Shown: piece after piece, positions 2,880 to 46,901 of the stretch | Layout: the number at the start of each line of letters is the position of its first letter | Numbering within the stretch: position 1 is the first letter of the stretch | Assembly (NCBI GenBank): GCA_965204745.1 | Contig: OZ242010.1 | Span: 4,288,001 to 4,352,000, forward strand | DNA from: Candidatus Latescibacterota bacterium | GTDB taxonomy: Bacteria; Latescibacterota; UBA2968 | Direction: 5' to 3' | Length of the DNA stretch: 64,000 bases | The notes under the pieces: generated by a model | Told to the model about the DNA's origin: nothing | The model's input: the letters and a program-made list of their open reading frames with translations, nothing else | Database searches by the model: none | Translations under genes and position numbers: made by a program

Positions 2880-2975
2880 GGGTGTCCTCCGAGTTGTCAG
2901 TTGTCAGGTTGTATTGACATTTCATTTTTTTTGACGTTACGCACAGATTAGCAAATGTGTTGCTTGCTCATTTAA

Positions 2976-3276
2976 GGAGGACCTATCCCCCGGCCCCTTT
3001 CCTACGAGGAAAGGGGAGTAAAGGCCCTTTGATGGCTTCTCGCTATGGTTGCTCTGATGGCGTTGACCGAGGGCAGAAAGCGATTAAGGAGGACCTATCC
3101 CCCGGCCCCTTTCCTACGAGGAAAGGGGAGTAAAGGCCCTTTGATGGCTTCTCGCTATGGTTGCTCTGATGGCGTTGACCGAGGGCAGAAAGCGATTAAA
3201 AATTCCTCACATCTTCCCCTCGGAAAACCGATCCTCGTTCCCCCTTCCTCGCAGGAAGGGGGTTAGGGGGTAGGTC
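2976..3276. repeat. REP/MITE-like intergenic element with tandem ~111-bp duplication
   Basis: aggacctatcccccggcccctttcctacgaggaaagggg... occurs at ~2978 and ~3089. It is closed by the inverted counterpart ccccttcctcgcaggaagggggttagggggtaggtcc. A related copy lies at 18392-18612. Confidence 0.8.
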
Positions 3277-6730: not shown

Positions 6731-7007
6731 GGCGTGTTCCTCAATAGAAGCGGTTAAACGCTGATAGCTACTTTTGTGATTAGACCTAACATTTACAAAT
6801 GGAGTTCCCAAAGTGAAAGAATTAGACCAACTGTCGTCCTCGCGCCACAACACACGCACTTGGGCAAATGGATTGTGGCGGCGAAAATGGGAAATCATAA
6901 CCCTATATTTTTTAATGGCATCTGCTCAATTTTGTCTTGCGTCTCGTGGGTTTCGGGCTATATTAGCGTCAATGCTATGACGAGACCATGCGAGATGGGA
7001 GTGCTGC

Positions 7008-7316
7008 ATGACGACGACCAAAAGGGCCATTGCCTTGGAAATTTCCGAGCGTTTGGGAATCAAAAAACAACTGGCCTACGATATGGTGAATACACTTTTT
7101 GACATTATGCGCGAGAACCTGATCGATGGCAACCGAATCGAGATTCGAGGCTTTGGCGTGTTGGGGGTCAAGCCGACCAAACCCAAGCCCGCTGCCCGCA
7201 ACCCCCGCACGGGCGAGATCGTGTACGTGCCCGCCCGGCGGAAGAGCTATTTCAAAGCGGGCGTTCTGATCAAGAAGGAGTTGTACAAGCCATTGGAGGA
7301 AATCGAGAAAAGCTAA
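7008..7316 (+). CDS. HU/IHF family DNA-binding protein
   Basis: RIEIRGFG...ARNPRTGE...FKAG signature. Confidence 0.93.
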   Translation: MTTTKRAIALEISERLGIKKQLAYDMVNTLFDIMRENLIDGNRIEIRGFGVLGVKPTKPKPAARNPRTGEIVYVPARRKSYFKAGVLIKKELYKPLEEIEKS

Positions 7317-7373
7317 GCGGTATAGCCACAAGAGGTACGAGTGGGGTACAACTGGCGACAGCCCGTTCACAGG

Positions 7374-7415
7374 AAAACAAAAAGGTCCAGCCAAAAGCTG
7401 GACCTTTTTGTTTTG
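7374..7415. terminator. Probable bidirectional intrinsic terminator
   Basis: Near-perfect inverted repeat aaaacaaaaaggtccagc-caaaa-gctggacctttttgtttt downstream of HU. Confidence 0.7.
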
Positions 7416-7488
7416 TCAGGACCTCTTCCCGATTACTCGCTACGATCCGTTGTAGGCGCCGCCTGTGCCTATTTTGAAAAAAAGATAC

Positions 7489-7516
7489 TTGACAGGCGGA
7501 TTGACGGGCTTATATT
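7489..7516 (+). promoter_or_regulatory. Sigma70-like promoter
   Basis: TTGACA-N16-TATATT upstream of the surface-protein island. Confidence 0.5.
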
Positions 7517-7935
7517 CTCCCGCGTTGACCGAGTAGGTCTCAACCACAAAGGGGTTTGGCTGTTATGACAATTCAGACTTCACATCCTACTTTTTTTGGC
7601 GTTCACACCGGCACCGCGACGGCTGGTGTGAGGTCTTTTTTGCCTGCCCACAACTTAACACAACTTATTGTTTTCATTAGATTTTCGGGGGGGGGGGGGC
7701 ATTTCCCCTTATCGCCTTCCCCTATCTGTATTGTCTGACCAAAATTCCACCGTCCAATTTGCACCATGTCGCATCCCTCCTGATCAATTTTTTCCGTCCG
7801 TCTTTCCCCCATTCGTTTCATTCTTCCAAAACATTTTCTTTAGCCGGCTCAGTTCCTGCGTGGCAACCCCTTGAGGAACAGCCGGCTTATTTTTTTGTTT
7901 TCACTGACAATGCGAATTTTGAGCACATCTGCTTG

Positions 7936-8284
7936 GTGGATTCCAGGCTGATTGTCCTCACACAAGCAACACGCAACGGCGTCGATAATACCGCGGAGGG
8001 TGCCGACAAGTGGTTGTCATTATCGACCTATCACACTACGGCATACGTACACATAGAGGAGGGATGAGATGCGACTTTTTTGTCCTACCGCATAACCAGG
8101 AAAGCTTAAACCTCTTTCCCTAGCCAGCAGTTCAATCTATCGCAGTTTTATCAGCAAATTGGGGCTGGAAACCCTATGCTAATTCACAACAGGAGATTAA
8201 GACCATGATTAAATTGGCACAACTGGCCTTGTTGGCCTTGGCAATGCTTGCGACCCTGTTTTCTGGGACTGGATTTGCTTTTGA
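7936..8284 (+). repeat. ~350-bp duplication (leader + RBS + signal peptide), copy 1
   Basis: Nearly identical to 9443-9795 apart from a small indel near the RBS. Confidence 0.95.
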
Positions 8285-9275
8285 AGGGAGGAAGTTACGA
8301 AAGGGAACCTCGGCTATGAAGCTCACGCGGTTGCTGATCTTCGGAACCGTTCTGCTGGTCATGTGCTTTGCTTATGCCTGTGGAAAGGACGATCCGAGCG
8401 GTAGCGGTAGCGGCGGTGGCAGTGGCGGTACGCCCAAGATGTACTGGACGGACGCACTCTGGACAGGAAGCCGATTTACTGATGGTAAGATTCAGCGTGC
8501 CAACTTGGATGGCTCCAATGTCGAAGACCTCATCACCACAGGATTGGGTAATCCAGTTGGCATCGCGCTGGATGTGGGACGCGGAAAGATGTACTGGACG
8601 GAAAGGCGCATGGAGAGGATTCAGCGTGCCAACTTGGATGGCTCCCAGGTTGAAGACCTCATCACCACAGGATTGCGTTTTCCATATGGCATCGCGCTGG
8701 ATGTGGGACGCGGAAAGATGTACTGGACGGAGTGGATCGCGGGTAAGATTCAGCGTGCCAACTTGGATGGCTCCAATGTCGAAGACCTCATCACCACAGG
8801 ATTGAGAGAGCCACTTGGCATCGCGCTGGATGTGGGACGCGGAAAGATGTACTGGACAAACAAGGACTTAGACGGTGACGGTCGCACGTCTAAGATTCAG
8901 CGTGCCAACTTGGATGGCTCCAATGTCGAAGACCTCATCACCACAGGATTGAATGCGCTAGCTAGCATCGCGCTGGATGTGGGACGCGGAAAGATGTACT
9001 GGACAAACACGGACTTAGACGGTGACGGTCGCACGTCTAAGATTCAGCGTGCCAACTTGGATGGCTCCAATGTCGAAGACCTCATCACCACAGGATTGGG
9101 GGGGCCAGAGGGCATCGCGCTGGATGTGGGACGCGGAAAGATGTACTGGAAAAACACGGACTCCGGCGGTCGCACGTCTAAGATTCAGCGTGCCAACTTG
9201 GATGGCTCCAATGTCGAAGACCTCATCACCACAGGATTGAGGCCACCTGTTGGCATCGCGCTGGATGTGCGGTAG
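8205..9275 (+). CDS. YWTD (LDL-receptor class B) six-bladed beta-propeller, likely lipoprotein (alternative start 8316)
   Basis: Six repeats of KMYWT..KIQRANLDGSNVEDLITTGL..GIALDVGRG. Second signal MKLTRLLIFGTVLLVMCFAYA-C followed by a Gly/Ser linker. Confidence 0.9.
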   Translation: MIKLAQLALLALAMLATLFSGTGFAFEGRKLRKGTSAMKLTRLLIFGTVLLVMCFAYACGKDDPSGSGSGGGSGGTPKMYWTDALWTGSRFTDGKIQRANLDGSNVEDLITTGLGNPVGIALDVGRGKMYWTERRMERIQRANLDGSQVEDLITTGLRFPYGIALDVGRGKMYWTEWIAGKIQRANLDGSNVEDLITTGLREPLGIALDVGRGKMYWTNKDLDGDGRTSKIQRANLDGSNVEDLITTGLNALASIALDVGRGKMYWTNTDLDGDGRTSKIQRANLDGSNVEDLITTGLGGPEGIALDVGRGKMYWKNTDSGGRTSKIQRANLDGSNVEDLITTGLRPPVGIALDVR

Positions 9276-9447
9276 TGCCGTCAACGGTGGCGGCAGTGGT
9301 GGTGGAGGGGCCTGTTCGGTGGGGCAGGTGTTGAGTCCGGGGCAGAGTTGCACCGTCAATATTCCCAATATCAATGTCGGCAGTAATCGGTTCGTGGTCC
9401 GCTCCGATGGATCGGGGTGTTACGGCAATATCTGCGCGGGTAGTGGA
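9271..9447 (+). pseudogene. Out-of-frame Gly linker + Cys-rich domain remnant
   Basis: GSAVNGGGSGGGGACSVGQVLSPGQSCTVN...GCYGNICAGSG lies in a shifted frame right after the YWTD stop and is cut off by the duplicated segment. Confidence 0.55.
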
Positions 9448-9795
9448 TTCCAGGCTGATTGTCCTCACACAAGCAACACGCAACGGCGTCGATAATACCG
9501 CGGAGGGTGCCGACAAGTGGTTGTCATTATCGACCTATCACACTACGGCATACGTACACATAGAGGAGGGATGAGATGCGACTTTTTTGTCCTACCGCAT
9601 AACCAGGAAAGCTTAAACCTCTTTCCCTAGCCAGCAGTTCAATCTATCGCAGTTTTATCAGCAAATTGGGGCTGGAAACCCTATGCTAATTCACAGGCGA
9701 CAGGAGATTAAGACCATGATTAAATTGGCACAACTGGCCTTGTTGGCCTTGGCAATGCTTGCGACCCTGTTTTCTGGGACTGGATTTGCTTTTGA
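9443..9795 (+). repeat. ~350-bp duplication, copy 2
   Basis: Matches 7936-8284. Confidence 0.95.
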
Positions 9796-10276
9796 TGGAA
9801 ACAGGGCGGGATTTATTCTTGGAATTGGAGGCGGTGGCGGGTATGCCCGCGATAGGGATACTTTTTTTGATGTGTCTAAGTCAAGTTTCGCCGGGAAAAC
9901 AGATTTTCTCATTGGATATGCGCCGAGCAATCGGCTGGCAATAACTTGGTCAAACAAAGTTTCCTGGTATGATTGGAAGTGGCCTGACTACGACTATGAC
10001 GGATTCTTTGCTTCCAACGGTACGGCTGGACTTGGAATTACTTACTTTCTGTCCGAAGATATAAATGCGAATTTCGTTCAGGCAGTAGTTGGATACAATG
10101 TTGTTTTCGCACCATTTGATGATGTGGGCTCTTCTGGAGGATTTGGACTCGGTATTGGCGTTGGGCGCGAAGTCTCAAAGAATTGGATCATAGGTTTAGA
10201 CGCGACTTGGGGCAGACCTGAAGAAGACGTAACGACATTTGGTATCGGTGTATATTTTTCGCATATCTGGTACTGA
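9716..10276 (+). CDS. Outer-membrane beta-barrel protein
   Basis: Signal peptide ending GFA, alternating amphipathic strands, terminal aromatic residues (YFSHIWY), lower GC. Confidence 0.8.
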   Translation: MIKLAQLALLALAMLATLFSGTGFAFDGNRAGFILGIGGGGGYARDRDTFFDVSKSSFAGKTDFLIGYAPSNRLAITWSNKVSWYDWKWPDYDYDGFFASNGTAGLGITYFLSEDINANFVQAVVGYNVVFAPFDDVGSSGGFGLGIGVGREVSKNWIIGLDATWGRPEEDVTTFGIGVYFSHIWY

Positions 10277-10485
10277 TGCGAATAAAGGGTTAAACCCGTC
10301 GCGTCCTTCTCGGTGCTTGCAGTGTGTGGATGGTCGTGCGTCCCAACCAGAGTTGTCAGATCAGCATGGGTTGTCTTGCGTTGTTGTTGTGTGGCTCAGT
10401 GTTCGGGGGGCGTGGAGATCGCGCTTTTTGAAAAGGCTTCGGGCGACGCCTATTCTAAAGTCGCCCAAACTTTCACAAGGAGCGA

Positions 10486-13400
10486 GTGATGCGTAAACTG
10501 ATTTTGTCAACGGGCTTGTGTATGACCGCGCTCACAGCGCTGGTCTTTGTGGTCTATCAAGTCGCAGCCGAACCGGATGCCCAAGGCGGCGCGGCCACAG
10601 GGGAATCTTCCCCGATTTCTGAACGGCGAGCGAAAGTTGCCGCTGGTGCCAATGCCAATGCGCGGCTGTCGCTCGATCTGATTCCCAATGGCGGCGCGGG
10701 CGATCAGAGAGATAATGAAGTCACATCGGGCACCGCGTCTGGACGAGATACGATTGCCATTGAGGTTTTTGCAACCGGCGTGACCACCTCTTTGATCGGC
10801 ATGCAACTTCAGTTTGCCTTTGATGCGACTCTGTTGACCTTTGTCAAAGCGGAGAACCGCGCGTTTGTCTTTAACGTGCCACAACCGACGGGCACGGACT
10901 TCGCGGCGTTTTCGCCGGTTCGTTTGGCGTCGTCGGGTTTTCTGGCACGGGCAGAGTTCACCACGGCGCCCGATGTTACGGGCCGGGAATTTTCCATTGG
11001 CCTTGGGTTGGTGACGCTTTCTGAAAGTTTGTCCTCGAGCGATACGCTCACCACGACAAGCCGGATCTCGTTTAACGTTCCGACGACTTCCACGCCCGAT
11101 TTTAATGGCAATGGGAAGGTGGACTTTCCCGATTTCTTGGCGTTTGTCGCGCAATATGGCGCCCGGCGCGGGGATAGCAGATACGAAGCGAAGTACGATT
11201 TGAATAGCGATGGCGCGATAGACTTTCAGGATTTTCTGACTTTTGCCAGCAGTTATGGTCAGTCAGTGCCCCCTTCTGGTGGCGGGAGTCGCAGTCCGGA
11301 TCTGGTCGTTGAAGCGCCGTCGGTCAGCAATAGCACGCTGACGCCCGGTCAATCCTTCACCCTGCAAGCCACCGTTCGCAACCGGGGCACGGGGCCATCA
11401 GCTGCGACGACCTTGCGTTATCATCAATCGTCCGACGCGACGATCACGACCAGCGATAGGTCTGTGGGCACGGACGCAGTCAGCGTGCTTTCGGCTTCGG
11501 GCACGGGTTTGGAATCGATCCCTCTGACCGCGCCTTTGACCCCGGGCACGTATTACTACGGCGCGTGTGTGGCAAGCGTCAGCAACGAGAAAGATACCAG
11601 CAACAACTGCTCGACCGGCGTGCGCGTGACGGTCGGTGGTGGCGGTGGTGGCGGTGGCGGGAGTCGCAGTCCGGATCTGATCGTTGAATCGCCGTCGGTC
11701 AGCGATAGCACGCTGACGCCTGGGCAATCCTTCACCCTGCAAGCCACCGTTCGCAACCGGGGCACGGGGCCATCAACCGCGACGACCTTGCGTTATCATC
11801 AATCGTCCGACGCGACGATCGCGACCAGCGATAGGTCTGTGGGCACGGACGCAGTCAGCGTGCTTTCGGCTTCGGGCACGGGTTTGGAATCGATCCTTCT
11901 GACCGCGCCTTTGAGTGCTGGCACGTATTACTACGGCGCGTGTGTGGCTGCGGTCAGCGGCGAGACCGATGTCAGCAACAACTGCTCGACCGGCATCCGA
12001 GTGGTCGTTGGCGCGCCAGACCTGGTTGTACAATCGCCATCGGTGGATAATACCACGCTGACGCCGGGGCAGTCGCTCACGCTAAGCGCGAAGGTTCACA
12101 ATCAAGGCATGGCTGAGGCGGCGGCGACGACCCTGCGCTATTATCGCTCAACCGACGCGACGATCACCACCGGCGACACAGAAGTCGGCACGGATAGTGT
12201 GAACCGCTTGGCGGCCCGCAACGGCCTTGATACCTCGGTTCGGCTGACCGCGCCAGCGGCCACGGGCACGTATTACTACGGCGCGTGTGTGGCTGCGGTC
12301 AGCGGTGAGAAAGATACCAGCAACAACTGCTCGACCGGCGTCCAAGTGATCGTTGGCGCGCCAGGCTTGCTCGTGCAATCGCTGACGGCGAGTAATACCA
12401 CGCCGACGCCGGGGCAGTCGATCACGCTTCGCGCGACGGTGGGTAATCGAGGCACGGCGGCGGCGACCGCGGCGACCCTGCGCTATTACCAATCGTCTGA
12501 CGCGACGATCACGACCGGCGACACAGAAGTCGGCACGGCGGATGTGATAAGCACCCTGGCGGTGGGAGCGACGAGTGTGCAGTCGAGCAGTGTGACGACG
12601 CCAGCGACCGCGGGCACGTATTACTACGGCGCGTGTGTGGTAGCGGTCAGGGGCTCGAGCGATAACTGCTCGGCCGGCGTCCGAGTGGTCGTTGGCGCGC
12701 CAGACCTGCTCGTGCAATCGCCATCGGTGGATAATACCACGCCGACGGCTGGGCAGTCGATCACGCTACGTGCGACGGTGCTCAACCGAGGCACGGCGAC
12801 GGCCGCGGCGACCACCCTGCGCTATTACCTCTCAGCCGACGCGACGATCACGACCGGCGACACAAAAGTTGGCACGGCGGATGCGATAAGCGCCTTGGCG
12901 GTGTCGGCGACGAGTGAGCAGTCGAGCAGCGTGCCCGTGTCAGCGATCCCCGGCACGTATTACTACGGCGCGTGTGTGGTTGCGGTCAGCAACGAGAAAG
13001 ATACCAGCAACAACTGCTCGGCCAGCGTCCGGGTGACCGTTGGCGCGCCAGACCTGGTCGTGCAATCGCCATCGGTGGATAAGACCACGGCGGCGACGGC
13101 GCAGTCGCTTACGCTAAGCGCGACAGTGCGTAATCAAGGCACGGGGGCGGCGACGACGACCACCCTGCGCTATTACCTTTCAGCCGACGCGACGATCACG
13201 ACCGACGACACGCCAGTCGGCACGGACGCAGTCAGCGCCCTGGCGGTGTCGGCGACGAGTGTGCAGTCGAGTAGCGTGCCCGTGGCAGCGATCCCCGGCA
13301 CGTATTACTACGGCGCGTGCGTGGATGCGGTCAGCGGCGAGAGCAACACCACCAACAACTGCTCGACCGGCGTCCGGGTGACCGTTGGTACTCCAGACCT

Positions 13401-16400
13401 GCTTGTGCAATCGGCATCGGTGGATAATACCACGCTGACGCCGGGGCAGGCGTTCACGCTTCGCGCGACGGTGCTCAACCGAGGCACGGCGGCGGCGGCG
13501 ACGACGACCCTGCGCTACTATCAATCGTCCGACGCGACGATCACGACCGGCGACACAGAAGTCGGCACGGCAGATGCGATAAGCGCCCTGGCGGTGTCGG
13601 CGACGAGTGAGCAGTCGAGTAGTGTGACCGCACCAGCGACCGCGGGCACGTATTACTACGGCGCGTGTGTGGCGAGCATCGGCGAGAGCAACACCGACAA
13701 CAACTGCTCGACCGGCGTCCAAGTGATCGTTGGCGCGCCAGGCTTGCTCGTGCAATCGGTGTCGGTGGACGATACCACGCCGACGCCGGGGCAGGCGATC
13801 ACGCTTCGCGCGACGGTGGGTAATCGAGGCACGGCGGCGGCGACAGCGGCGACCCTGCGCTACTACCAATCGTCTGACGCGACGATCACGACCGGCGACA
13901 CAGAAGTCGGCACGGCGGATGCGATAAGCGCGCTGGCGGTGTCGGCGACGAGTGAGCAGTCGAGTCGTGTGACTGCGCCTTTGACCGCGGGCACGTATTA
14001 CTACGGCGCGTGTGTGTTAGTCAGGGGCTTGAGCGATACGAACAACAACTGCTCGGCCGGTGTCCGAGTGGTCGTCGGCGCGCCAGACCTGCTCGTGCAA
14101 TCGCCTGCGGTGGATAATACCACGCCGACGACAGGGCAGGCGTTCACGCTAAGCGCGACGGTGTTCAACCGAGGCACGGCTGAGGTAGCGGCGGCGACCC
14201 TGCGCTATTACCGCTCAACCGACGCGACGATCACGACCGGCGACACAGAAGTCGGCACGTCGGATGCGATAAGCGTGCTGGCGGTGTCGGCGAAGAGTGT
14301 GCAGTCGAGTAGCGTGACTGCGCCTTCGACCACGGGCACGTATTACTACGGCGCGTGCGTGGATGCGGTCAGCGGCGAGAGCAACACCAACAACAACTGC
14401 TCGGCCGGCGTCCAAGTGACCGTTGGCGCGCCAGACCTGCTCGTGCAATCGCCTGCGGTGGATAAGACCACGGCGACGCCGGGGCAGGTGCTCACGCTCC
14501 GCGCGACGGTGCGTAATCAAGGCACGGCGACGGCGACAGCGACCACTCTGCGCTATTACCAATCGTCTGACGCGACGATCACCACCAGCGACACGCAAGT
14601 CGGCACGTCGGATGCGATCAGCGCGCTGGCGGCGTCGGCGACGAGTGAGCAGTCGAGTAGCGTGACCGCGCCAGCGGCAGTGGGCACGTATTACTTTGGC
14701 GCGTGTGTGGCAAGCGTCAGTGCCGAGAGTGCGACGAACAACAACTGCTCGGATGGCGTGCGCGTCATGGTCGTTGTTCCTGACCTGATCGTTGAATCGC
14801 CTTCGGTGGACGATACCACGCCGACGCCGGAGCAGTCGATCACGCTTCGCGCGACGGTGCGTAATCAAGGCACCGGGCAGGCCGCAACGACGACCCTTCG
14901 CTATTACCGCTCAACCAATGCGACGATCACGACCGGCGACACAGAAGTTGGCTCGGCGGATGCGATCAGCGCGCTGGCGGCGTCGGCGACGAGTGAGCAG
15001 TCGAGTAGCGTGACGGCGCCAACAACCGCGGGCACGTATTACTACGGCGCGTGTGTGGCAAGCGTCAGCGGCGAGACCGATGTCAGCAACAACTGCTCGG
15101 CCGGCGTCCAAGTGACCGTTGGTGCGCCAGACCTGCTTGTGCAATCGCCTTCGGTGGACGATACCACGCCGACGCCTGGGCAGTCGATCACGCTAAGCGC
15201 GACGGTGCGTAATCAAGGCACGGCCGAGGCCGCGGCGACGACCCTGCGCTATTACCAATCGTCTGACGCGACGATCACGACCGACGACACAGAAGTTGGC
15301 TCGTCGGATGCGATCAGCGCCCTGGCGGCGTCGGCGACGAGTGAGCAGTCGAGTAGCGTGACCGCACCAGCAACCGCGGGCATGTATTACTACGGCGCGT
15401 GTGTGGCAAGCGTCAGTGCCGAGACCGATGTCAGCAACAACTGCTCGGGCAGCGTCCAAGTGACCGTTGGCGCGCCAGACCTGGTTGTGCAATCGCCTTC
15501 GGTGGACGATACCACGCCGACGCCTGGGCAGTCGCTCACGCTAAGCGCGACGGTGCGTAATCAAGGCACGGCCGAGGCCGCGGCGACGACCCTGCGCTAT
15601 TATCAATCGTCTGACGCGACGATCACGACCGACGACACAGAAGTTGGCTCGTCGGATGCGATCAGCGCGCTGGCGGCGTCGGCGACGAGTGAGCAGTCGA
15701 GTAGCGTGACCGCACCAGCAACCGCGGGCACGTATTACTACGGCGCGTGTGTGGATGCGGTCAGCGGCGAGACCGATGTCAGCAACAACTGCTCGGCCGG
15801 CGTCCAAGTGACCGTTGGTGCGCCAGACCTGCTTGTGCAATCGCCTTCGGTGGACGATACCACGCCGACGCCTGGGCAGTCGATCACGCTAAGCGCGACG
15901 GTGCGTAATCAAGGCACGGCCGAGGCCGCGGCGACGACCCTGCGCTATTACCAATCGTCTGACGCGACGATCACGACCGACGACACAGAAGTTGGCTCGT
16001 CGGATGCGATCAGCGCCCTGGCGGCGTCGGCGACGAGTGAGCAGTCGAGTAGCGTGACCGCACCAGCAACCGCGGGCATGTATTACTACGGCGCGTGTGT
16101 GGCAAGCGTCAGTGCCGAGACCGATGTCAGCAACAACTGCTCGGGCAGCGTCCAAGTGACCGTTGGCGCGCCAGACCTGGTTGTGCAATCGCCTTCGGTG
16201 GACGATACCACGCCGACGCCTGGGCAGTCGCTCACGCTAAGCGCGACGGTGCGTAATCAAGGCACGGCCGAGGCCGCGGCGACGACCCTGCGCTATTATC
16301 AATCGTCTGACGCGACGATCACGACCGACGACACAGAAGTTGGCTCGTCGGATGCGATCAGCGCCCTGGCGGCGTCGGCGACGAGTGAGCAGTCGAGTAG

Positions 16401-18360
16401 CGTGACCGCGCCTTCAACCGCGGGCACGTATTACTACGGCGCGTGTGTGGTAGCAGTCAGCGGCGAGACCGATACGAACAACAACTGCTCGGCCGGCGTC
16501 CAAGTGACCGTTGGCGCGCCAGACCTGCTTGTGCAATCGCCTTCGGTGAATGATACCACGCCGACGCCTGGGCAGTCGATCACGCTAAGCGCGACGGTGC
16601 GTAATCAAGGCACGGCTGAAGCGGCGGCGACGACCCTGCGCTATTACCAATCGTCTGACGCGACGATCACGACCGGCGACACAGAAGTTGGCTCGTCGGA
16701 TGCGATAAGCGCGCTGGCGGCGTCGGCGACGAGTGAGCAGTCGAGTAGCGTGACCGCGCCAGCGACCGCGGGCACGTATTACTACGGCGCGTGTGTGGCA
16801 AGCGTCAGTGCCGAGACCGATGTCAGCAACAACTGCTCGGCCGGCGTCCAAGTGGTCGTTGGTGCGCCAGACCTGGTTGTGCAATTGCCTTGGGTGAGTA
16901 GTACCATACGGGCGACTGGGCAGGCGCTGACGCTAAGCGCGACGGTGCGTAATCAAGGCACGGCTGAGGCGGCGGCGACGACCCTGCGCTATTACCAATC
17001 GTCTGACGCGACGATCACCACTGGCGACACAGAAGTTGGCACGTCGGATGCGATAAGCGCACTGGCGGCTTCGGCGACGAGCGCGCAGTCAAGTAGCGTG
17101 ACCGCGCCAACGACCGCCGGCACATATTACTACGGCGCGTGTGTGGCAAGCGTCAGCGGCGAGAGTGCTACGAACAACAACTGCTCGGCTGGCGTACGCG
17201 TCACGGTCGTTGTTCCTGACCTGATCGTTGAATCGCCTTCGGTGAGTGATACCACGCGGGCGCCGGGGGAGTCGCTGACGCTAAGCGCGACGGTGCGTAA
17301 TCAAGGCACCGGGCGGGCCGCGGCGACGACCCTGCGCTATTACCAATCGTCTGACGCGACGATCACCACTGGCGACACAGAAGTTGGCTCGTCGGATGCG
17401 ATCAGAGCGCTGGCGGCGTCGGCGACGAATGCACAGTCGAGTAGCGTGACTGCTCCAGCGACCACCGGCACGTATTACTACGGCGCGTGTGTGGATGCGG
17501 TCAGCGGCGAGATCAACACCAACAACAACTGCTCGGGTGGCGTGCGCGTCACGGTGAAGCCGTCCAAGATGTACTGGGTGGGTGAGCACTGGACAAGAGG
17601 CCAATGGAGGCCTAAGATTCAGCGTGCCAACTTGGATGGCTCCAATGTCGAAGACCTCATCACCACAGGATTGAATTTGCCAAATGGCATCGCGCTGGAT
17701 GTGGGACGCGGAAAGATGTACTGGACGGTATATTGGTTCTCCCTTAACCAGGGTAAGATTCAGCGTGCCAACTTGGATGGCTCCAATGTCGAAGACCTCA
17801 TCACCGCAGGAGTGCATTCTACAGGTGGCATCGCGCTGGATGTGGGCCGCGGAAAGATGTACTGGACAAACCTGAGCGCGGGTAAGATTCAGCGTGCCAA
17901 CTTGGATGGCTCCAATGTCGAAGACCTCATCACCACAGGATTGGGGACGCCAGAAGGCATCGCGCTGGATGTGGGACGCGGAAAGATGTACTGGACGGAC
18001 TCTTACAAGCAAAAGATTCAGCGTGCCAACTTGGATGGCTCCAATGTCGAAGACCTCATCACCACAGGATTGACTGTGCCATTGGCCATCGCGCTGGATG
18101 TGGGACGCGGAAAGATGTACTGGACGGACTCTGACACGAATAAGATTCAGCGTGCCAACTTGGATGGCTCCAATGTCGAAGACCTCATCACCACAAAAGA
18201 CCCATTTTACATCGCGCTGGATGTGGGCCGCGGAAAGATGTACTGGACGGACACTGGCACGAATAAGATTCAGCGTGCCAACTTGGATGGCTCACTGATC
18301 GAAAATATCCAGCCCACAGGAACGTGGAATCCATATGGCATCGCGCTGGATTTGCGGTAG
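10486..18360 (+). CDS. Giant secreted protein: cohesin-like, dockerin/EF-hand pair, 18 CARDB-like repeats, C-terminal YWTD propeller
   Basis: Signal peptide; DFNGNGKVDFPDF/DLNSDGAIDFQDF; 18 ~116-aa units P(D/G)L..ATTLRYY.S.DATIT..YYGACV..NNCS; six YWTD blades. Confidence 0.9.
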   Translation: MMRKLILSTGLCMTALTALVFVVYQVAAEPDAQGGAATGESSPISERRAKVAAGANANARLSLDLIPNGGAGDQRDNEVTSGTASGRDTIAIEVFATGVTTSLIGMQLQFAFDATLLTFVKAENRAFVFNVPQPTGTDFAAFSPVRLASSGFLARAEFTTAPDVTGREFSIGLGLVTLSESLSSSDTLTTTSRISFNVPTTSTPDFNGNGKVDFPDFLAFVAQYGARRGDSRYEAKYDLNSDGAIDFQDFLTFASSYGQSVPPSGGGSRSPDLVVEAPSVSNSTLTPGQSFTLQATVRNRGTGPSAATTLRYHQSSDATITTSDRSVGTDAVSVLSASGTGLESIPLTAPLTPGTYYYGACVASVSNEKDTSNNCSTGVRVTVGGGGGGGGGSRSPDLIVESPSVSDSTLTPGQSFTLQATVRNRGTGPSTATTLRYHQSSDATIATSDRSVGTDAVSVLSASGTGLESILLTAPLSAGTYYYGACVAAVSGETDVSNNCSTGIRVVVGAPDLVVQSPSVDNTTLTPGQSLTLSAKVHNQGMAEAAATTLRYYRSTDATITTGDTEVGTDSVNRLAARNGLDTSVRLTAPAATGTYYYGACVAAVSGEKDTSNNCSTGVQVIVGAPGLLVQSLTASNTTPTPGQSITLRATVGNRGTAAATAATLRYYQSSDATITTGDTEVGTADVISTLAVGATSVQSSSVTTPATAGTYYYGACVVAVRGSSDNCSAGVRVVVGAPDLLVQSPSVDNTTPTAGQSITLRATVLNRGTATAAATTLRYYLSADATITTGDTKVGTADAISALAVSATSEQSSSVPVSAIPGTYYYGACVVAVSNEKDTSNNCSASVRVTVGAPDLVVQSPSVDKTTAATAQSLTLSATVRNQGTGAATTTTLRYYLSADATITTDDTPVGTDAVSALAVSATSVQSSSVPVAAIPGTYYYGACVDAVSGESNTTNNCSTGVRVTVGTPDLLVQSASVDNTTLTPGQAFTLRATVLNRGTAAAATTTLRYYQSSDATITTGDTEVGTADAISALAVSATSEQSSSVTAPATAGTYYYGACVASIGESNTDNNCSTGVQVIVGAPGLLVQSVSVDDTTPTPGQAITLRATVGNRGTAAATAATLRYYQSSDATITTGDTEVGTADAISALAVSATSEQSSRVTAPLTAGTYYYGACVLVRGLSDTNNNCSAGVRVVVGAPDLLVQSPAVDNTTPTTGQAFTLSATVFNRGTAEVAAATLRYYRSTDATITTGDTEVGTSDAISVLAVSAKSVQSSSVTAPSTTGTYYYGACVDAVSGESNTNNNCSAGVQVTVGAPDLLVQSPAVDKTTATPGQVLTLRATVRNQGTATATATTLRYYQSSDATITTSDTQVGTSDAISALAASATSEQSSSVTAPAAVGTYYFGACVASVSAESATNNNCSDGVRVMVVVPDLIVESPSVDDTTPTPEQSITLRATVRNQGTGQAATTTLRYYRSTNATITTGDTEVGSADAISALAASATSEQSSSVTAPTTAGTYYYGACVASVSGETDVSNNCSAGVQVTVGAPDLLVQSPSVDDTTPTPGQSITLSATVRNQGTAEAAATTLRYYQSSDATITTDDTEVGSSDAISALAASATSEQSSSVTAPATAGMYYYGACVASVSAETDVSNNCSGSVQVTVGAPDLVVQSPSVDDTTPTPGQSLTLSATVRNQGTAEAAATTLRYYQSSDATITTDDTEVGSSDAISALAASATSEQSSSVTAPATAGTYYYGACVDAVSGETDVSNNCSAGVQVTVGAPDLLVQSPSVDDTTPTPGQSITLSATVRNQGTAEAAATTLRYYQSSDATITTDDTEVGSSDAISALAASATSEQSSSVTAPATAGMYYYGACVASVSAETDVSNNCSGSVQVTVGAPDLVVQSPSVDDTTPTPGQSLTLSATVRNQGTAEAAATTLRYYQSSDATITTDDTEVGSSDAISALAASATSEQSSSVTAPSTAGTYYYGACVVAVSGETDTNNNCSAGVQVTVGAPDLLVQSPSVNDTTPTPGQSITLSATVRNQGTAEAAATTLRYYQSSDATITTGDTEVGSSDAISALAASATSEQSSSVTAPATAGTYYYGACVASVSAETDVSNNCSAGVQVVVGAPDLVVQLPWVSSTIRATGQALTLSATVRNQGTAEAAATTLRYYQSSDATITTGDTEVGTSDAISALAASATSAQSSSVTAPTTAGTYYYGACVASVSGESATNNNCSAGVRVTVVVPDLIVESPSVSDTTRAPGESLTLSATVRNQGTGRAAATTLRYYQSSDATITTGDTEVGSSDAIRALAASATNAQSSSVTAPATTGTYYYGACVDAVSGEINTNNNCSGGVRVTVKPSKMYWVGEHWTRGQWRPKIQRANLDGSNVEDLITTGLNLPNGIALDVGRGKMYWTVYWFSLNQGKIQRANLDGSNVEDLITAGVHSTGGIALDVGRGKMYWTNLSAGKIQRANLDGSNVEDLITTGLGTPEGIALDVGRGKMYWTDSYKQKIQRANLDGSNVEDLITTGLTVPLAIALDVGRGKMYWTDSDTNKIQRANLDGSNVEDLITTKDPFYIALDVGRGKMYWTDTGTNKIQRANLDGSLIENIQPTGTWNPYGIALDLR

Positions 18361-18775: not shown

Positions 18776-19765
18776 ATGGCAGAATACGATACGATTCCCA
18801 AGCAGTTGATGCACCTCTACCCGCAAGACCTCATCCGCTTGGCACTCGGACGCGAGGAGGTCGAAATTGAAGTTGAAGAAGTCCTCGACACCGAACTCCC
18901 CAAGGTGGAAACGCGCCTGGTCGATAGCCTTATTCGCGTGCGGATCGATGGCGAGGAAGCCTTGATCCACATCGAATTTCAAACCTCGGATAGCGCGAAT
19001 ATGGCTCGTCGCATGGCTTCCTATATCATTCGTCTCATCGAGCAGTATGACTTGCCGGTCTATTCCTTTGTCATCTATCTGCGTCCCAATGCCGGGCGGA
19101 GCGATAAGGGATTTTTCCGCCAAGATCATGCGGACTTCCCCGTGCTGGTGCGCTACAAGGTGATTCGGTTGAGCGAGCTGGACGGGCAGGGCATTCTTGA
19201 AGGCGACCAGGCCGGCTTGCTTCCTTTCGCGCCCTTGATGAAGCCGCCTGTGGGGATGGGTTCCGAAGATTGGTTGCGTGCGTGTGTTCGCAAGGGCGAT
19301 TCGGTTTCGTTGGATGAGGCAGACAAGGCGAATTATTTGGGTAGCTTGGCGGTCTTGAGTGGGTTGGCGTATGATCCTGCCACCATCAACCGAATTTTTT
19401 CCCAGGAGGGTTTTATGGACGCGATTATGCGTGAGTCATCGTTTGCCCAGTACCTCGAGGAGCGCGGCATTGAGCGCGGCATCGAGCAGGGAATCGAGCG
19501 CGGCATTGAGCAGGGAATCGAGCGCGGCATTGAGCAGGGAATCGAGCAGGGAATCGAGCAGGGAATCGAGCAGGGCGTTGAACGAGGCATTCGAGAGAGC
19601 ATCCGAGAAGCGTTGGCGATTCGCTTTGATGCAGGTGTGGCCGGTCAGTTCGCCGCTCGCATTGCGACCATCGACGATTTGCAACGGCTCAAGCAGTTGC
19701 TTCGCTCGGCGATGCAAGTGGATGATCTGGCGGCCTTTCAGCGCGTGTTGGATGCGGAAGCCTAA
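18776..19765 (+). CDS. Rpn/YhgA-like PD-(D/E)XK nuclease, copy 1
   Basis: VDSL...IHIEFQ...RMASY motifs, GIE(Q/R) repeats, helical C-terminal domain. Confidence 0.9.
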   Translation: MAEYDTIPKQLMHLYPQDLIRLALGREEVEIEVEEVLDTELPKVETRLVDSLIRVRIDGEEALIHIEFQTSDSANMARRMASYIIRLIEQYDLPVYSFVIYLRPNAGRSDKGFFRQDHADFPVLVRYKVIRLSELDGQGILEGDQAGLLPFAPLMKPPVGMGSEDWLRACVRKGDSVSLDEADKANYLGSLAVLSGLAYDPATINRIFSQEGFMDAIMRESSFAQYLEERGIERGIEQGIERGIEQGIERGIEQGIEQGIEQGIEQGVERGIRESIREALAIRFDAGVAGQFAARIATIDDLQRLKQLLRSAMQVDDLAAFQRVLDAEA

Positions 19766-19791
19766 CGCGATTCCCTGTCAGGAGGCGTCTC

Positions 19792-20865
19792 ATGGCAGAA
19801 TACGATACGATTCCCAAGCAGTTGATGCACCTCTACCCGCAAGACCTCATCCGCTTGGCACTCGGACGCGAGGATGTCGAAATTGAAGTTGAAGAAGTCC
19901 TCGACACCGAACTCCCCAAGGTGGAAACGCGCCTGGTCGATAGCCTCATGCGCGTGCGGATCGATGGCGAGGAAGCCTTGATCCACATCGAATTTCAAAC
20001 CTCGGATAGCGCGAATATGGCTCGTCGCATGGCTTCCTATATCATCCGCCTCATCGAGCAGTATGACTTGCCGGTCTATTCCTTTGTCATCTATCTGCGT
20101 CCCAATGCCGGGCGGAGCGATAAGGGATTTTTTCGCCAAGATCATGCGGACTTCCCCGTGCTGGTGCGCTACAAGGTGATTCGGTTGAGCGAGCTGGATG
20201 GGCGCGGCATTCTTGAAGGCGACCAGGCCGGCTTGCTTCCTTTCGCGCCGTTGATGAAGCCGCCTGTGGGGATGGGTTCCGAGGACTGGTTGCGTGCGTG
20301 TGTTCGCAAGGGCGATTCGGTTTCGTTGGATGAGGCAGACAAGGCGAATTATTTGGGTAGCTTGGCGGTCTTGAGTGGGTTGGCGTATGATCCTGCCACC
20401 ATCAACCGAATTTTTTCCCAGGAGGGTTTTATGGACGCGATTATGCGTGAGTCATCGTTTGCCCAGTACCTCGAGGAGCAGTTCAAGGAACAGTTTCTTG
20501 AGCAGGGCATTGAGCAGGGCATCGAGCGCGGCATTGAGCAGGGAATCGAGCAGGGCATCGAGCAGGGAATCGAGCAGGGCATCGAGCGCGGCATCGAGCA
20601 GGGAATCGAGCAGGGAATCGAGCAGGGAATCGAGCAGGGAATCGAGCAGGGAATCGAGCAGGGCATTGAGCGCGGGGGTAGAGAACATACCATTGCCGCT
20701 ATCCTCGACGTGTTGGAGATTCGCTTTGATGTGGTCGTTGCCGGTCAGTCCGCCGCTCGCATTGCGACCATCGACGATTTGCCGAGGCTCAAGCGGTTGC
20801 ATCGTGCAGCGGTGCAAGCGGATGATCTGGCGGCCTTTCAGCGCGTGTTGGATGCGGAAGCCTAA
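19792..20865 (+). CDS. Rpn/YhgA-like PD-(D/E)XK nuclease, copy 2
   Basis: Near-identical N-terminal domain; different repeat number and C-terminal tip (GGREHTIAAILDVLEIRF). Confidence 0.9.
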   Translation: MAEYDTIPKQLMHLYPQDLIRLALGREDVEIEVEEVLDTELPKVETRLVDSLMRVRIDGEEALIHIEFQTSDSANMARRMASYIIRLIEQYDLPVYSFVIYLRPNAGRSDKGFFRQDHADFPVLVRYKVIRLSELDGRGILEGDQAGLLPFAPLMKPPVGMGSEDWLRACVRKGDSVSLDEADKANYLGSLAVLSGLAYDPATINRIFSQEGFMDAIMRESSFAQYLEEQFKEQFLEQGIEQGIERGIEQGIEQGIEQGIEQGIERGIEQGIEQGIEQGIEQGIEQGIEQGIERGGREHTIAAILDVLEIRFDVVVAGQSAARIATIDDLPRLKRLHRAAVQADDLAAFQRVLDAEA

Positions 20866-20891
20866 CGCGATTCCCTGTCAGGAGGCGTCTC

Positions 20892-21977
20892 ATGGCAGAA
20901 TACGATACGATTCCCAAGCAGTTGATGCACCTCTACCCGCAAGACCTCATCCGCTTGGCTCTCGGACGCGAGGATGTCGAAATTGAAGTTGAAGAAGTCC
21001 TCGATACCGAACTCCCCAAGGTGGAAACGCGCCTGGTCGATAGCCTTATTCGCGTGCGGATCGATGGCGAGGAAGCCTTGATCCACATCGAATTTCAAAC
21101 CTCGGATAGCGCGAATATGGCTCGTCGCATGGCTTCCTATATCATCCGTCTCATCGAGCAGTATGACTTGCCGGTCTATTCCTTTGTCATCTATCTGCGT
21201 CCCAATGCCGGGCGGAGCGATAAGGGATTTTTTCGCCAAGATCATGCGGACTTTCCCGTGCTGGTGCGCTACAAGGTGATTCGGTTGAGCGAGCTGGACG
21301 GGCGCGGCATTCTTGAAGGCGACCAGGCCGGCTTGCTTCCTTTCGCGCCGTTGATGAAGCCGCCTGTGGGGATGGATTCCGAAGATTGGTTGCGCGCGTG
21401 TGTTCGCAAGGGCGATGAGGTTTCGTTGGATGAGGCAGACAAGGCGAATTATTTGGGTAGCTTGGCGGTCTTGAGTGGGTTGGCTTATGATCCTGCCACC
21501 ATCAACCGAATTTTTTCCCAGGAGGGTTTTATGGACGCGATTATGCGTGAGTCATCGTTTGCCCAGTACCTCGAGGAGCAGTTCAAGGAACAGTTTCTTG
21601 AGCAGGGCATTGAGCAGGGAATCGAGCGCGGCATCGAGCAGGGAATCGAGCAGGGAATCGAGCAGGGAATCGAGCAGGGAATCGAGCAGGGAATCGAGCA
21701 GGGAATCGAGCAGGGAATCGAGCAGGGAATCGAGCAGGGAATCGAGCAGGGAATCGAGCAGGGCATTGAGCAGGGAATCGAGCAGGGCGTTGAACGAGGC
21801 ATCCAAGAGAGCATCCGAGAAGCGTTGGCGATTCGCTTTGATGCAGGTGTGGCCGGTCAGTTCGCCGCTCGCATTGCGACCATCGACGATTTGCAACGGC
21901 TCAAGCAGTTGCTTCGCTCGGCGATGCAAGCGGATGATCTGACAGCCTTTCAGCGCGTGTTGGATGCGGAGATCTGA
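20892..21977 (+). CDS. Rpn/YhgA-like PD-(D/E)XK nuclease, copy 3
   Basis: As above, with the longest GIEQ tract. Confidence 0.9.
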
Positions 21978-26162: not shown

Positions 26163-26312
26163 GGGACTGACAACTGACAGTATTCAGTGGTCAGCCCCCA
26201 CCTGCCCCTACCGCCCAAGTAGTCAGTAGTCAGTCCCCGCCCGCTCTCCACCGCTATGTTCGTTAGAATTAGTCAACTGACAACTGACAACTGACAACTG
26301 ACAACTGACAAC
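26163..26312. repeat. Inverted copy of the ~117-bp heptamer-associated element plus (TGACAAC)n
   Basis: Reverse complement of the unit at 45450-45566, followed by ~5 TGACAAC units. Confidence 0.85.
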
Positions 26313-39584: not shown

Positions 39585-39646
39585 CAGTAGTCAGTGGTCA
39601 GTAGTCAGTGGTCAGTGGTCAGTGGTCAGTGGTCAGTGGTCAGTCC
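39585..39646. repeat. Heptamer tandem repeat (CAGTGGT/CAGTAGT), ~8 units
   Basis: Directly visible, about 10 nt upstream of the herA start. Confidence 0.95.
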
Positions 39647-45284: not shown

Positions 45285-45294
45285 GGGAAACTCC

Positions 45295-45453
45295 AGTTGT
45301 CAGTTGTCAGTTGTCAGTTGTCAGTTGTCAGTTGTCAGTTGTCAGTTGTCAGTTGTCAGTTGTCAGTTGTCAGTTGTCAGTTGTCAGTTGTCAGTTGTCA
45401 GTTGTCAGTTGTCAGTTGTCAGTTGTCAGTTGTCAGTTGTCAGTTGTCAGTTG
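45295..45453. repeat. Heptamer tandem repeat (CAGTTGT), ~22 units
   Basis: Perfect array directly upstream of the nurA start. Confidence 0.97.
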
Positions 45454-46384: not shown

Positions 46385-46510
46385 GTGGTCAGTGGTCAGT
46401 GGTCAGTGGTCAGTGGTCAGTGGTCAGTGGTCAGTGGTCAGTGGTCAGTGGTCAGTGGTCAGTGGTCAGTGGTCAGTGGTCAGTGGTCAGTGGTCAGTGG
46501 TCAGTGGTCA
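46385..46510. repeat. Heptamer tandem repeat (GTGGTCA), ~18 units
   Basis: Directly visible. Confidence 0.97.
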
Positions 46511-46901
46511 GCAGAACAGATCACCTTTGGGGATGGGTGGAGACTGGTAGTTGATGGCATCTTGTATCTTTGGGCGAGCACGGAGGCAATCGTCCCTTTT
46601 AATTGAATTCAGTTAAGTTGTGGGAAATTAGGCGTTATGAAATGATATGTCAAGTGTTTTTTATCGGGCGAGGGAAAATCCAAGGGTGCGTGCCGACATT
46701 GGCTATGCCCGTGCTTGCGCGTGCGCCGGAATGGCGATGGGGCAAGGCAAAGAGCGTTGATGTTGCAGTTGTACACCATTCCGCAGATTCGGCTATGCCG
46801 TGCTTGCAAATTGCGATATATTAAGCCCATCGCTCCTAACACATACGCAAAGGCGCGATGCCCTATGCTGATGCTACTCATAGTGGAACAAAGGTTTGAC
46901 C

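Follow-up and report, generated by a model that had tools for sequence, protein, structure and literature searches.

This work concerns a single gene in a 64,000-nt stretch of the genome of a sponge-associated Candidatus Latescibacterota bacterium (hereafter the window; positions refer to it unless given as genome coordinates, which are those of the whole contig). The genome, G000, comes from sponge metagenomes and is contained in one contig of 5.48 Mb. The gene, a 356-aa open reading frame (ORF) at 8205-9275 on the forward strand, contains a six-bladed YWTD beta-propeller of the LDL-receptor class B type, in which stretches of nearly constant DNA alternate with two variable loops per blade (Table 1). 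Six stretches of the 279-aa propeller match the Pfam family Ldl_recept_b (PF00058), with 148.6 bits against a cut-off of 21, and the YWT motif is followed by D, E or N in five blades, the remaining one carrying YWKN. As detailed below, the propeller belongs to a large family of such arrays in the same genome, whose blades vary mainly at six codons that, by strand topology in a structural model, lie on one face.

Two scaffold blocks recur along the propeller, block A of 60 nt and block B of 39 nt. Five of the six copies of block A are identical, with four mismatches in the copy at 8616-8675, and four of the five full copies of block B are identical, with one mismatch in that at 8964-9002; according to Tandem Repeats Finder (TRF), the periods are 129 and 147 nt, and 88-91% of positions match. 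An initial annotation of the window, made from the sequence alone, had pointed out both near-invariant blocks and listed a set of loop peptides, all of which are present, but it had described the loops as mostly unrelated to one another. Variable they are, but not all unrelated, because loop 2 retains an xxPxG frame in five of the six blades and because three of the loop-1 segments (8856-8891, 9003-9038 and 9150-9179), related long variants of the N-x-D-L-D-G-D-G-R-T-S type, are copies of each other, two of them differing by 1 nt in 36. The comparison of this arrangement with a CRISPR array holds as an analogy of layout only, because the array is an in-frame coding repeat, both periods being multiples of three inside one ORF; a search of Rfam with positions 6900-10600 gave no match. 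Compared with the family as a whole, loop 1 of this propeller is atypically long and divergent. Long Asp/Gly-rich variants of loop 1, of the D-x-D-G-D-G-R type, recur in one other propeller of the genome (propeller 18) besides that of the window, and presumably resemble calcium-binding loops.

A 114-nt blade query gave 140 DNA matches within the same genome. When all copies of the two constant blocks were collected genome-wide, as had been proposed together with the initial annotation, block A was found 26 times exactly and 92 times with at most four mismatches, and block B 33 and 117 times, respectively, numbers for which chance cannot be the source. Together they make up 24 propeller arrays with about 140 blades, encoded in 20 ORFs and taking up about 18 kb of the genome. 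Twenty-one of the 24 propellers are found in long multi-domain ORFs, and most of the 24 in what appear from their sequences to be giant secreted adhesin-like proteins; the host proteins have signal-like N-termini, and their propellers are combined with CARDB, Calx-beta, fn3, cadherin-like, PPC, dockerin/EF-hand, Peptidase_M8 or Pkinase domains. Three family genes are broken, one by a frameshift in propeller 13, another by a frameshift between genome positions 3279492 and 3280540, and the third being a truncated kinase-propeller copy. One gene, L135 (genome 2540588-2542798), encodes a Ser/Thr kinase, a membrane segment, a Glu/Arg-rich repeat and a YWTD propeller in a row, and in the broken second kinase-propeller copy (L141) a kinase ORF is followed by a four-blade fragment in another frame.

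To locate the variation, 75 blades of standard length (129 nt), out of 95 with a 12-nt loop 2, were aligned by codon, and the pairwise proportions of synonymous (pS) and nonsynonymous (pN) differences were computed. The 37 scaffold codons gave a pS of 0.101 and a pN of 0.061, against a pS of 0.302 and a pN of 0.582 for six variable codons, three of them in loop 2 (codons 21, 22 and 24, in xxPxG) and three in loop 1 (codons 40, 41 and 43, in TDxxTx). Family-wide, variability is confined to about six codons per blade and occasional length changes. In amino acids, the scaffold has an identity of 0.888, against 0.165 for the six hypervariable positions (family-wide mean for blades, 0.79 in amino acids and 0.87 in nucleotides), and five pairs of blades with identical scaffolds differ on average at 7.6 of the 18 hypervariable nucleotides. 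W, Y, R, S, T and G are overrepresented among the residues at these positions, and the same columns are the most variable ones, with 2.4-3.9 bits, in 403 blades from other genomes and phyla. The constant scaffold with two variable loops per blade that the initial annotation had read from the window is thus a property of the family, and the substitution analysis by position that it had suggested places the excess of nonsynonymous change, in pairwise pN, on the six loop codons.

The manner in which these codons vary points to selection. Between unique loop variants that are one nucleotide apart, 46 of 47 steps are nonsynonymous, where about 21% of steps were expected to be synonymous (binomial P 2e-4). 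Codons 21, 22, 24, 40 and 43 end in T or G in 353 of 375 instances and in C in 10, and codon 41 ends in C in 71 of the 75 blades, the third-base use of the genome being.38 C,.31 G,.18 T and.13 A. The same third-base pattern was found in the sister genome G016, and it is lost in relatives with old, diverged propellers (scaffold identity <0.8), where C reaches.53 at the hypervariable third bases; the third base is therefore a retained founder state, whereas positions 1 and 2 have been turned over. Judged from sequence, the pattern fits point substitution under selection, and neither the insertion of foreign cassettes nor neutral drift. The idea that unrelated cassettes had been inserted into the blades was consequently not borne out, as the variable codons differ chiefly at their first two positions and retain an inherited third base.

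It is very unlikely that a neutral heterology barrier accounts for the contrast between scaffold and loops, that is, that conversion homogenizes the identical blocks and halts at diverged loops, which then drift without selection. Although the recombination signal in the scaffold (see below) and a loop divergence that is nearly independent of scaffold distance agree with such a barrier, drift predicts synonymous changes in about 21% of the single steps and not in 1 of 47, it would push third bases to genome usage instead of leaving C at 10 of 375, and the residues would not be expected to be skewed as they are. A diversity-generating retroelement (DGR), or another templated mutator acting on the loops, is extremely improbable. 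Codon 41, being NNC in 71 of 75 blades while the other variable codons are NNT or NNG, superficially resembles the AAY targets of the DGR type, and the genome does encode one RVT_1 protein, but a DGR does not fit because the scaffold adenines are invariant; furthermore, this reverse transcriptase gene, the only RVT_1 gene of the genome, lies at genome position 5010819, with some 170 kb between it and the closest propeller and over 700 kb between it and the window, no template repeat was found beside the 24 loci, and the length variation of the loops does not suit this mechanism.

The kinase-propeller gene L135 was compared with its orthologue in a sister species, G018, with which it is colinear over 2150 nt. 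The kinase domain showed a pS of 0.349 and a pN of 0.041, the propeller scaffold a pS of 0.289 and a pN of 0.080, and the 30 variable codons a pN of 0.532, with 4 of the 30 residues kept. Synonymous sites of the scaffold thus diverge between species at about the ordinary rate, implying that the DNA identity of blades within a genome does not result from constraint on the DNA itself. Four of the five blades of the G018 orthologue have a His in common where the blades of L135 have Asn (Ser in blade 2), a blade-wide change after speciation that is a mark of concerted evolution. Within the genome, two giant CARDB paralogues of G000 are 96.7% identical over 6.7 kb, with synonymous and nonsynonymous divergences (dS and dN) of 0.069 and 0.022, and 9 of the 12 variable codons differ in their two aligned blades, whose scaffolds are nearly identical.

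Pairs of blades had a p-distance of 0.052 within propellers (112 pairs) and of 0.071 between propellers (2663 pairs), and the value for blades of the same index in different propellers was also 0.071 (529 pairs), so blades lack positional orthology. All four gametes were present at 115 of 210 informative pairs of scaffold sites, the Hudson-Kaplan minimum number of recombination events (Rm) was 9 within 129 nt, and the linkage between scaffold sites (r2) was below 0.05 beyond 15 nt. Scaffold variants show complete shuffling across blades, and the four-gamete counts bear out the recombination among blades that the initial annotation had supposed. In addition, each genome of the order has its own version of the scaffold.

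The recurrence of loop cassettes in new combinations, also foreseen there, exceeded chance for loop 2 and not for loop 1. Identical loop-2 codon triplets are shared by 20 pairs of blades, against 2.5 +/- 1.7 in 500 column shuffles (maximum 10); 12 of these pairs join blades of separate propellers, and in 17 the loops 1 differ. Identical loops 1, in contrast, are shared by 31 pairs, within the range of the shuffles (13.7 +/- 4.8, maximum 35). In the propeller of the window, blades 4 and 5 (147-nt units) show nine differences, eight of which fall within 13 nt at loop 2 (8952-8964; P 3e-8), and the closest matches among the other loops 2 of the genome are one or two nucleotides off; a micro-conversion at this loop is plausible, and repeated selected substitutions fit as well.

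The site pairs with four gametes and the loss of linkage beyond 15 nt, the blades without positional orthology between propellers, the species-specific residue common to four of five blades of the orthologue, and a scaffold pS of 0.10 within the genome against 0.29 between orthologues make it unlikely that the family arose by a recent burst in which blades and genes duplicated and thereafter changed through point mutation and positive selection only, with no exchange and with loops shared by descent or convergence, even though such a history would agree with the inherited third bases, with the 46 nonsynonymous steps out of 47, with paralogous loops that share codons in part, and with loop-1 sharing inside the shuffle range. 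Quite unlikely, too, is a programmed exchange of cassettes at high frequency, comparable to antigenic variation or to variable lymphocyte receptors (VLRs) and producing loop variants within a population, which was the reading of the initial annotation. Blocks of identity of 39-60 nt do flank every loop, identical loops 2 occur in new contexts, eight of the nine differences between two tandem blades of the window fall in loop 2, and broken and partial copies are present; yet no recombinase was found beside the window gene and no reverse transcriptase beside any of the propellers, 21 of the 24 are parts of long multi-domain ORFs and not of silent arrays, the variable codons look point-mutated, and one loop was kept with synonymous changes in another sample. 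A dedicated system of diversification like that of antibodies or VLRs is consequently unsupported, since the lone RVT_1 gene is about 170 kb off, no recombinase was found among the neighbors of the window gene, and no silent array of promoterless partial donor cassettes was seen among the family loci genome-wide.

Every one of the 20 genomes of the genus has DNA matches to the blades, as do 13 of 16 genomes of a sister family; the four genomes from other genera within its own family have none. More than 575 stretches that encode relatives were detected when one genome per species was scanned, and the best 80 of them come from metagenome-assembled genomes (MAGs) of Latescibacterota, Poribacteria, Acidobacteriota, Gemmatimonadota, Chloroflexota/Dehalococcoidia and Planctomycetota and, further, of Gammaproteobacteria, Calditrichaeota, Neomarinimicrobiota and Saprospiraceae. 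In 79 of 91 loci, those with at least three standard blades (four places being counted twice), the identity of scaffold DNA within a propeller ranges from 0.70 to 0.98, and that of the variable codons is mostly 0.3-0.6 (full range 0.30-1.00), with higher values in a few recently duplicated propellers. G000 and G016 are at the homogeneous end of this continuum, and no series of loops is common to any G016 propeller and any G000 propeller.

Sequence from the window was present, as assembled Logan contigs, in 15 sequencing runs of 7 studies, with no RNA run among them, and runs labelled as sponge metagenomes carry its flanks with few or no differences. The JGI metagenome contigs gave no match to a unique 22-mer of the signal region or to a 51-mer of block A, an exact look-up of five protein sequences found none of them in the protein collection, and a protein homology search for strain variants found none, the best relative being 71% identical. 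Contigs from four short-read runs break inside the repeat and multi-map from paralogues. These breaks within the array, like the three family genes that are frameshifted or truncated, could suggest a collapsed or mis-joined repeat, but an assembly artefact is scarcely credible for a contig of 5.48 Mb with 24 in-frame arrays, given that all 20 genomes of the genus and many independent assemblies show the same architecture and that every loop of the window propeller differs, which would anchor the assembly.

A structural model of the propeller obtained with AlphaFold2 (AF2) from 50 sequences has 24 strands, a predicted local distance difference test score (pLDDT) of 92.8 and a predicted template modeling score (pTM) of 0.92; an earlier model from 13 paralogues (pLDDT 47.8) was discarded. 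Foldseek aligned it to the propellers of LRP6, LRP4, nidogen and LDLR with template modeling (TM) scores of 0.80-0.82, and phmmer matched LRP4, LRP2 and LRP6 as well as the PknD chain 1rwi_B (E 6e-12). The strands of a blade in the model are A (xGIALD), B (KMYWT), C (IQRAN) and D (EDLI), where the conserved VGRG turn is the A-B loop and the conserved LDGSN turn the C-D loop, and the variable segments correspond to the loops B-C and D-A, which share one end of the sheet in a four-strand meander. By this topology the six variable codons are predicted to lie in two loops on one face, in agreement with the initial annotation, and this face is what we take to be the top face of YWTD propellers. The ligands of LRP6, LRP4 and nidogen bind the top face of their propellers. 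LDLR uses the top face of its propeller to dock LDL-receptor class A (LA) modules, according to the portion available of PMC5452030.

In our view, the family is probably the result of the concerted evolution of a large pool of blades combined with diversifying selection on six top-face codons, with an occasional reassortment of loops by ordinary recombination. Recent amplification of blades would keep the scaffold DNA nearly identical, and continuing homologous recombination in short tracts among blades, within and between loci, would homogenize the scaffold. The six codons of each blade, three in the D-A and three in the B-C loop, would meanwhile change by nonsynonymous point substitution and small length changes under diversifying selection, and the same recombination could sometimes reassort the hypervariable codons. 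The outcome would be a heritable set of binding modules, secreted or on the surface, in which the frame is constant and the contact residues vary. Ordinary gene conversion of the RecA type is presumably the agent of exchange, and the selective agent may be a variable partner such as a host, phage or other microbes.

Several observations weigh against this explanation or narrow it. The consensus scaffolds of G000 and G016 differ at 2 of 111 nt, while ordinary genes are 84-92% identical, a closeness that simple concerted evolution within a genome does not predict and that may stem from blade exchange among co-resident species or from a consensus that lags behind. A search for signature sites private to one propeller gave 0. 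Sharing of loop 1 is not above that in the shuffles, and the nearest-neighbor distance of loop 2 is barely under the null value (1.60 vs 1.83 +/- 0.08), so that loop exchange and repeated mutation are not cleanly separable. The identity of the two giant CARDB paralogues is down to about 86-88% in the CARDB repeat that immediately precedes the propeller, and the contrast between their scaffolds and loops may therefore partly reflect a module swap. A contig of 228 nt from another sample (corresponding to 9213-9440, with 11 differences) keeps the last loop, RPPV, with two synonymous changes, which hints that loops are stable between strains. Regarding the rates, only two blades of the window propeller are among the 75, and its loop 1 differs mainly by length; moreover, pN and pS are pairwise counts taken without a tree, and tree models are broken by recombination. 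Finally, the surface placement of the loops derives from the topology of the model, and ligand binding by them is presumed. As a separate observation on the blade pools of the two sister genomes (L055-L058, L060), blade identity was 0.927 between G000 and G016, about equal to the 0.930 and 0.944 within genomes.

A bolder proposal, which we consider doubtful though worth stating, is that the roughly 140 blades constitute a shared recombining pool in which gene conversion in short tracts continually reassorts top-face loops inside and across the 24 propellers, that blades may move between co-resident species, and that sponge symbionts of many phyla keep strain-specific, fast-turning repertoires of YWTD binders. 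If true, it would make the family a bacterial, exported counterpart of the repeats of fungal NOD-like receptors (NLRs), with a VLR-like logic, for recognizing host, phage or neighbors.

The closest described counterpart, together with other NLR repeats of high internal conservation, is the fungal het-d/het-e (HNWD) family, ten genes whose WD40 repeats undergo concerted evolution both inside each gene and from gene to gene, with diversifying selection acting on four surface codons of every repeat, according to the available parts of Paoletti 2007 (PMC1805685) and Dyrka 2014 (PMC4986451). The YWTD family resembles HNWD, as those parts describe it, in being a beta-propeller repeat family at multiple loci with concerted evolution, few diversifying surface codons and the reshuffling of repeats as a source of diversity. 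With it, the pairing of concerted evolution with a hypervariable surface, familiar from fungal immune receptors, is extended to proteins that would be exported by bacteria. The family is distinguished from HNWD by YWTD instead of WD40 blades, by six rather than four variable codons together with length variation, by the absence of repeat-induced point mutation (RIP), and by residing in bacterial exported adhesin-like or sensor proteins instead of cytoplasmic NACHT/NB-ARC receptors. No NACHT or NB-ARC domain was found in the 20 propeller proteins, and the family is therefore not a member of the NLR family, though it would work alike. With respect to the internal repeat identity above 85% used as a threshold for the HNWD type, the window propeller has 88-91% in DNA (TRF), and the family-wide values are the 0.79 in amino acids and 0.87 in nucleotides given above.

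Recently amplified propellers with near-identical blades were reportedly described by Afanasieva in 2019. Propellers with near-identical blades that arise by continuing amplification have been documented across bacteria (Pereira and Lupas 2022, PMC9218822, in the part available), and the family shares with them, as far as that part goes, blades that are near-identical even in DNA and the disrupted copies and out-of-frame fragments found alongside. It departs from the cases presented there in that 24 propellers draw on one blade pool without propeller-private nucleotides, which are the criterion of independent amplification in that source; the words YWTD, LDL, hypervariable and gene conversion do not occur in its text. 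With animal LRP6, LRP4, LDLR and nidogen, where the top face is used for partners, the family has in common the Pfam family, the six-bladed fold and the YWTD strand. Unlike the animal LDL-receptor family, its blades are near-identical and not individually diverged, and they come without EGF or LA modules, a scan of the 20 propeller proteins for EGF or Ldl_recept_a giving no hit. The kinase-propeller paralogue L135 resembles the mycobacterial sensor kinase PknD in its succession of Pkinase domain, membrane segment and propeller, although the blades of PknD are of the NHL type and the likeness concerns L135 only, not the window gene.

Transcription activator-like (TAL) effector repeats also consist of constant repeat DNA with few variable codons, and variable segments flanked by homology are characteristic of lamprey VLR assembly and of variation of the pilE/pilS, vlsE or tprK type. 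Unlike these systems, the YWTD family was found to have no DNA-binding repeat, no incomplete germline gene with donors and no silent cassette array, and, where silent-cassette systems have one expression site with donors, its propellers are distributed over 20 ORFs with signal-like N-termini or a multi-domain context.

Eukaryote-like repeat proteins abound in sponge symbionts, most of them with no role assigned, and the YWTD class has been noted only in passing, to judge from the available part of Kamke 2014 (PMC3909097), where tandem LDL-receptor class B repeats of sponge Poribacteria are described as eukaryote-like and predicted to be at the surface, with no function assigned. The proteins described here are similar to them in carrying tandem Ldl_recept_b repeats in sponge symbionts; that part of the paper gives presence and counts, without blade identity at the DNA level, variable positions or selection. 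The YWTD class is absent from the texts of Robbins 2021 and of the Latescibacterota paper, and no description of the present pattern in bacterial YWTD propellers was found in searches of the literature outside subscription journals. Six defined positions on one predicted face offer concrete targets for binding studies, in the form of residues to swap and a face to probe.

The window gene itself looks, from its sequence, like a rearranged and shortened member of the family. It is flanked by a direct repeat of about 350 bp, the two copies of which are 98.6% identical. The repeat holds the upstream region and the first 26 codons, which encode a predicted signal peptide, of the downstream 186-aa gene, and the ORF at 8205-9275 would therefore start with a borrowed signal peptide. 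A signal or lipoprotein peptide is also predicted from the Met at 8316. Beyond the propeller, an out-of-frame remnant corresponds to a Cys-containing domain that forms the C-terminal end of two paralogous propeller proteins. The first 252 nt of the direct repeat are also found upstream of another propeller gene (genome 3249919-3250169).

Neighboring genes encode an ABC-2-like membrane protein with a Golvesin C-terminal domain, an HU/IHF-type DNA-binding protein, the 186-aa protein, which has no assignment, a giant CARDB protein with a C-terminal propeller of the same family (Table 1), three repeat proteins, MlaC and an MMPL transporter.

Table 1. Coordinates in the window of the propeller gene, its repeated blocks and loops, and associated features.
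Feature	Position	Strand	Details and evidence
Propeller ORF	8205..9275	+	356 aa; ORF list and translation
Second in-frame Met, then hydrophobic signal-like segment ending in Cys (MKLTRLLIFGTVLLVMCFAYAC), then Gly/Ser linker	8316	+	
Six-bladed YWTD (Ldl_recept_b, LDL-receptor class B) beta-propeller	8436..9272	+	279 aa; Pfam, AF2, Foldseek, phmmer
Scaffold block A, copy 1	8487..8546	+	60 nt; encodes KIQRANLDGSNVEDLITTGL; strands C and D with the C-D loop
Scaffold block A, further copies	8616-8675, 8745-8804, 8892-8951, 9039-9098, 9180-9239	+	
Scaffold block B, copy 1	8559..8597	+	39 nt; encodes GIALDVGRGKMYW; strand A, A-B turn, strand B with YW
Scaffold block B, further copies	8688-8726, 8817-8855, 8964-9002, 9111-9149; partial copy 9252-9269	+	
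Variable loop 2, blade 1	8547..8558	+	D-A loop, xxPx; hypervariable codons 21, 22, 24
Variable loop 2, other blades	8676-8687, 8805-8816, 8952-8963, 9099-9110, 9240-9251	+	
Variable loop 1	8598..8615	+	B-C loop after YW; hypervariable codons 40, 41, 43
Variable loop 1, other segments	8448-8486 (N-terminal), 8727-8744, 8856-8891, 9003-9038, 9150-9179	+	
Direct repeat, copy 1	7936..8284	+	~350 bp; flanks the propeller gene; 98.6% identity to copy 2
Direct repeat, copy 2	9443..9795	+	Ahead of gene 9716-10276
Out-of-frame remnant of Cys-containing C-terminal domain	9250..9492	+	42% identity over 52 aa, E 8e-6
Neighboring 2624-aa protein, predicted secreted	10486..18360	+	Dockerin/EF-hand, 18 CARDB stretches, C-terminal propeller of the same family
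Blades of the C-terminal propeller of the 2624-aa protein	17614-18324	+	

Other repeats were observed in the window. The CARDB repeats of the 2624-aa protein form an array at 11920-17543 with a period of 348 nt and 16 copies (86% matches, TRF), a second homogenized repeat family inside a propeller-bearing protein. Three tandem paralogous ORFs at 18776-21977 each contain a long array of a 12-nt unit (9-16 copies) and have no significant Pfam family, the sub-threshold match being to Yae1_N (19.7 bits vs a cut-off of 27.5). Intergenic tandem arrays of heptanucleotides, with up to 23 perfect copies, are located at 26274-26312, 39585-39644, 45294-45453 and 46385-46511, and a perfect tandem duplication of a 112-nt unit at 2972-3199. 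Finally, the segment at 7234-7467, downstream of the HU/IHF-type gene, has a contig depth 50-100 times that of its flanks in four runs and dozens of matches of about 60 nt across G016 and G018, and looks like a short dispersed repeat.

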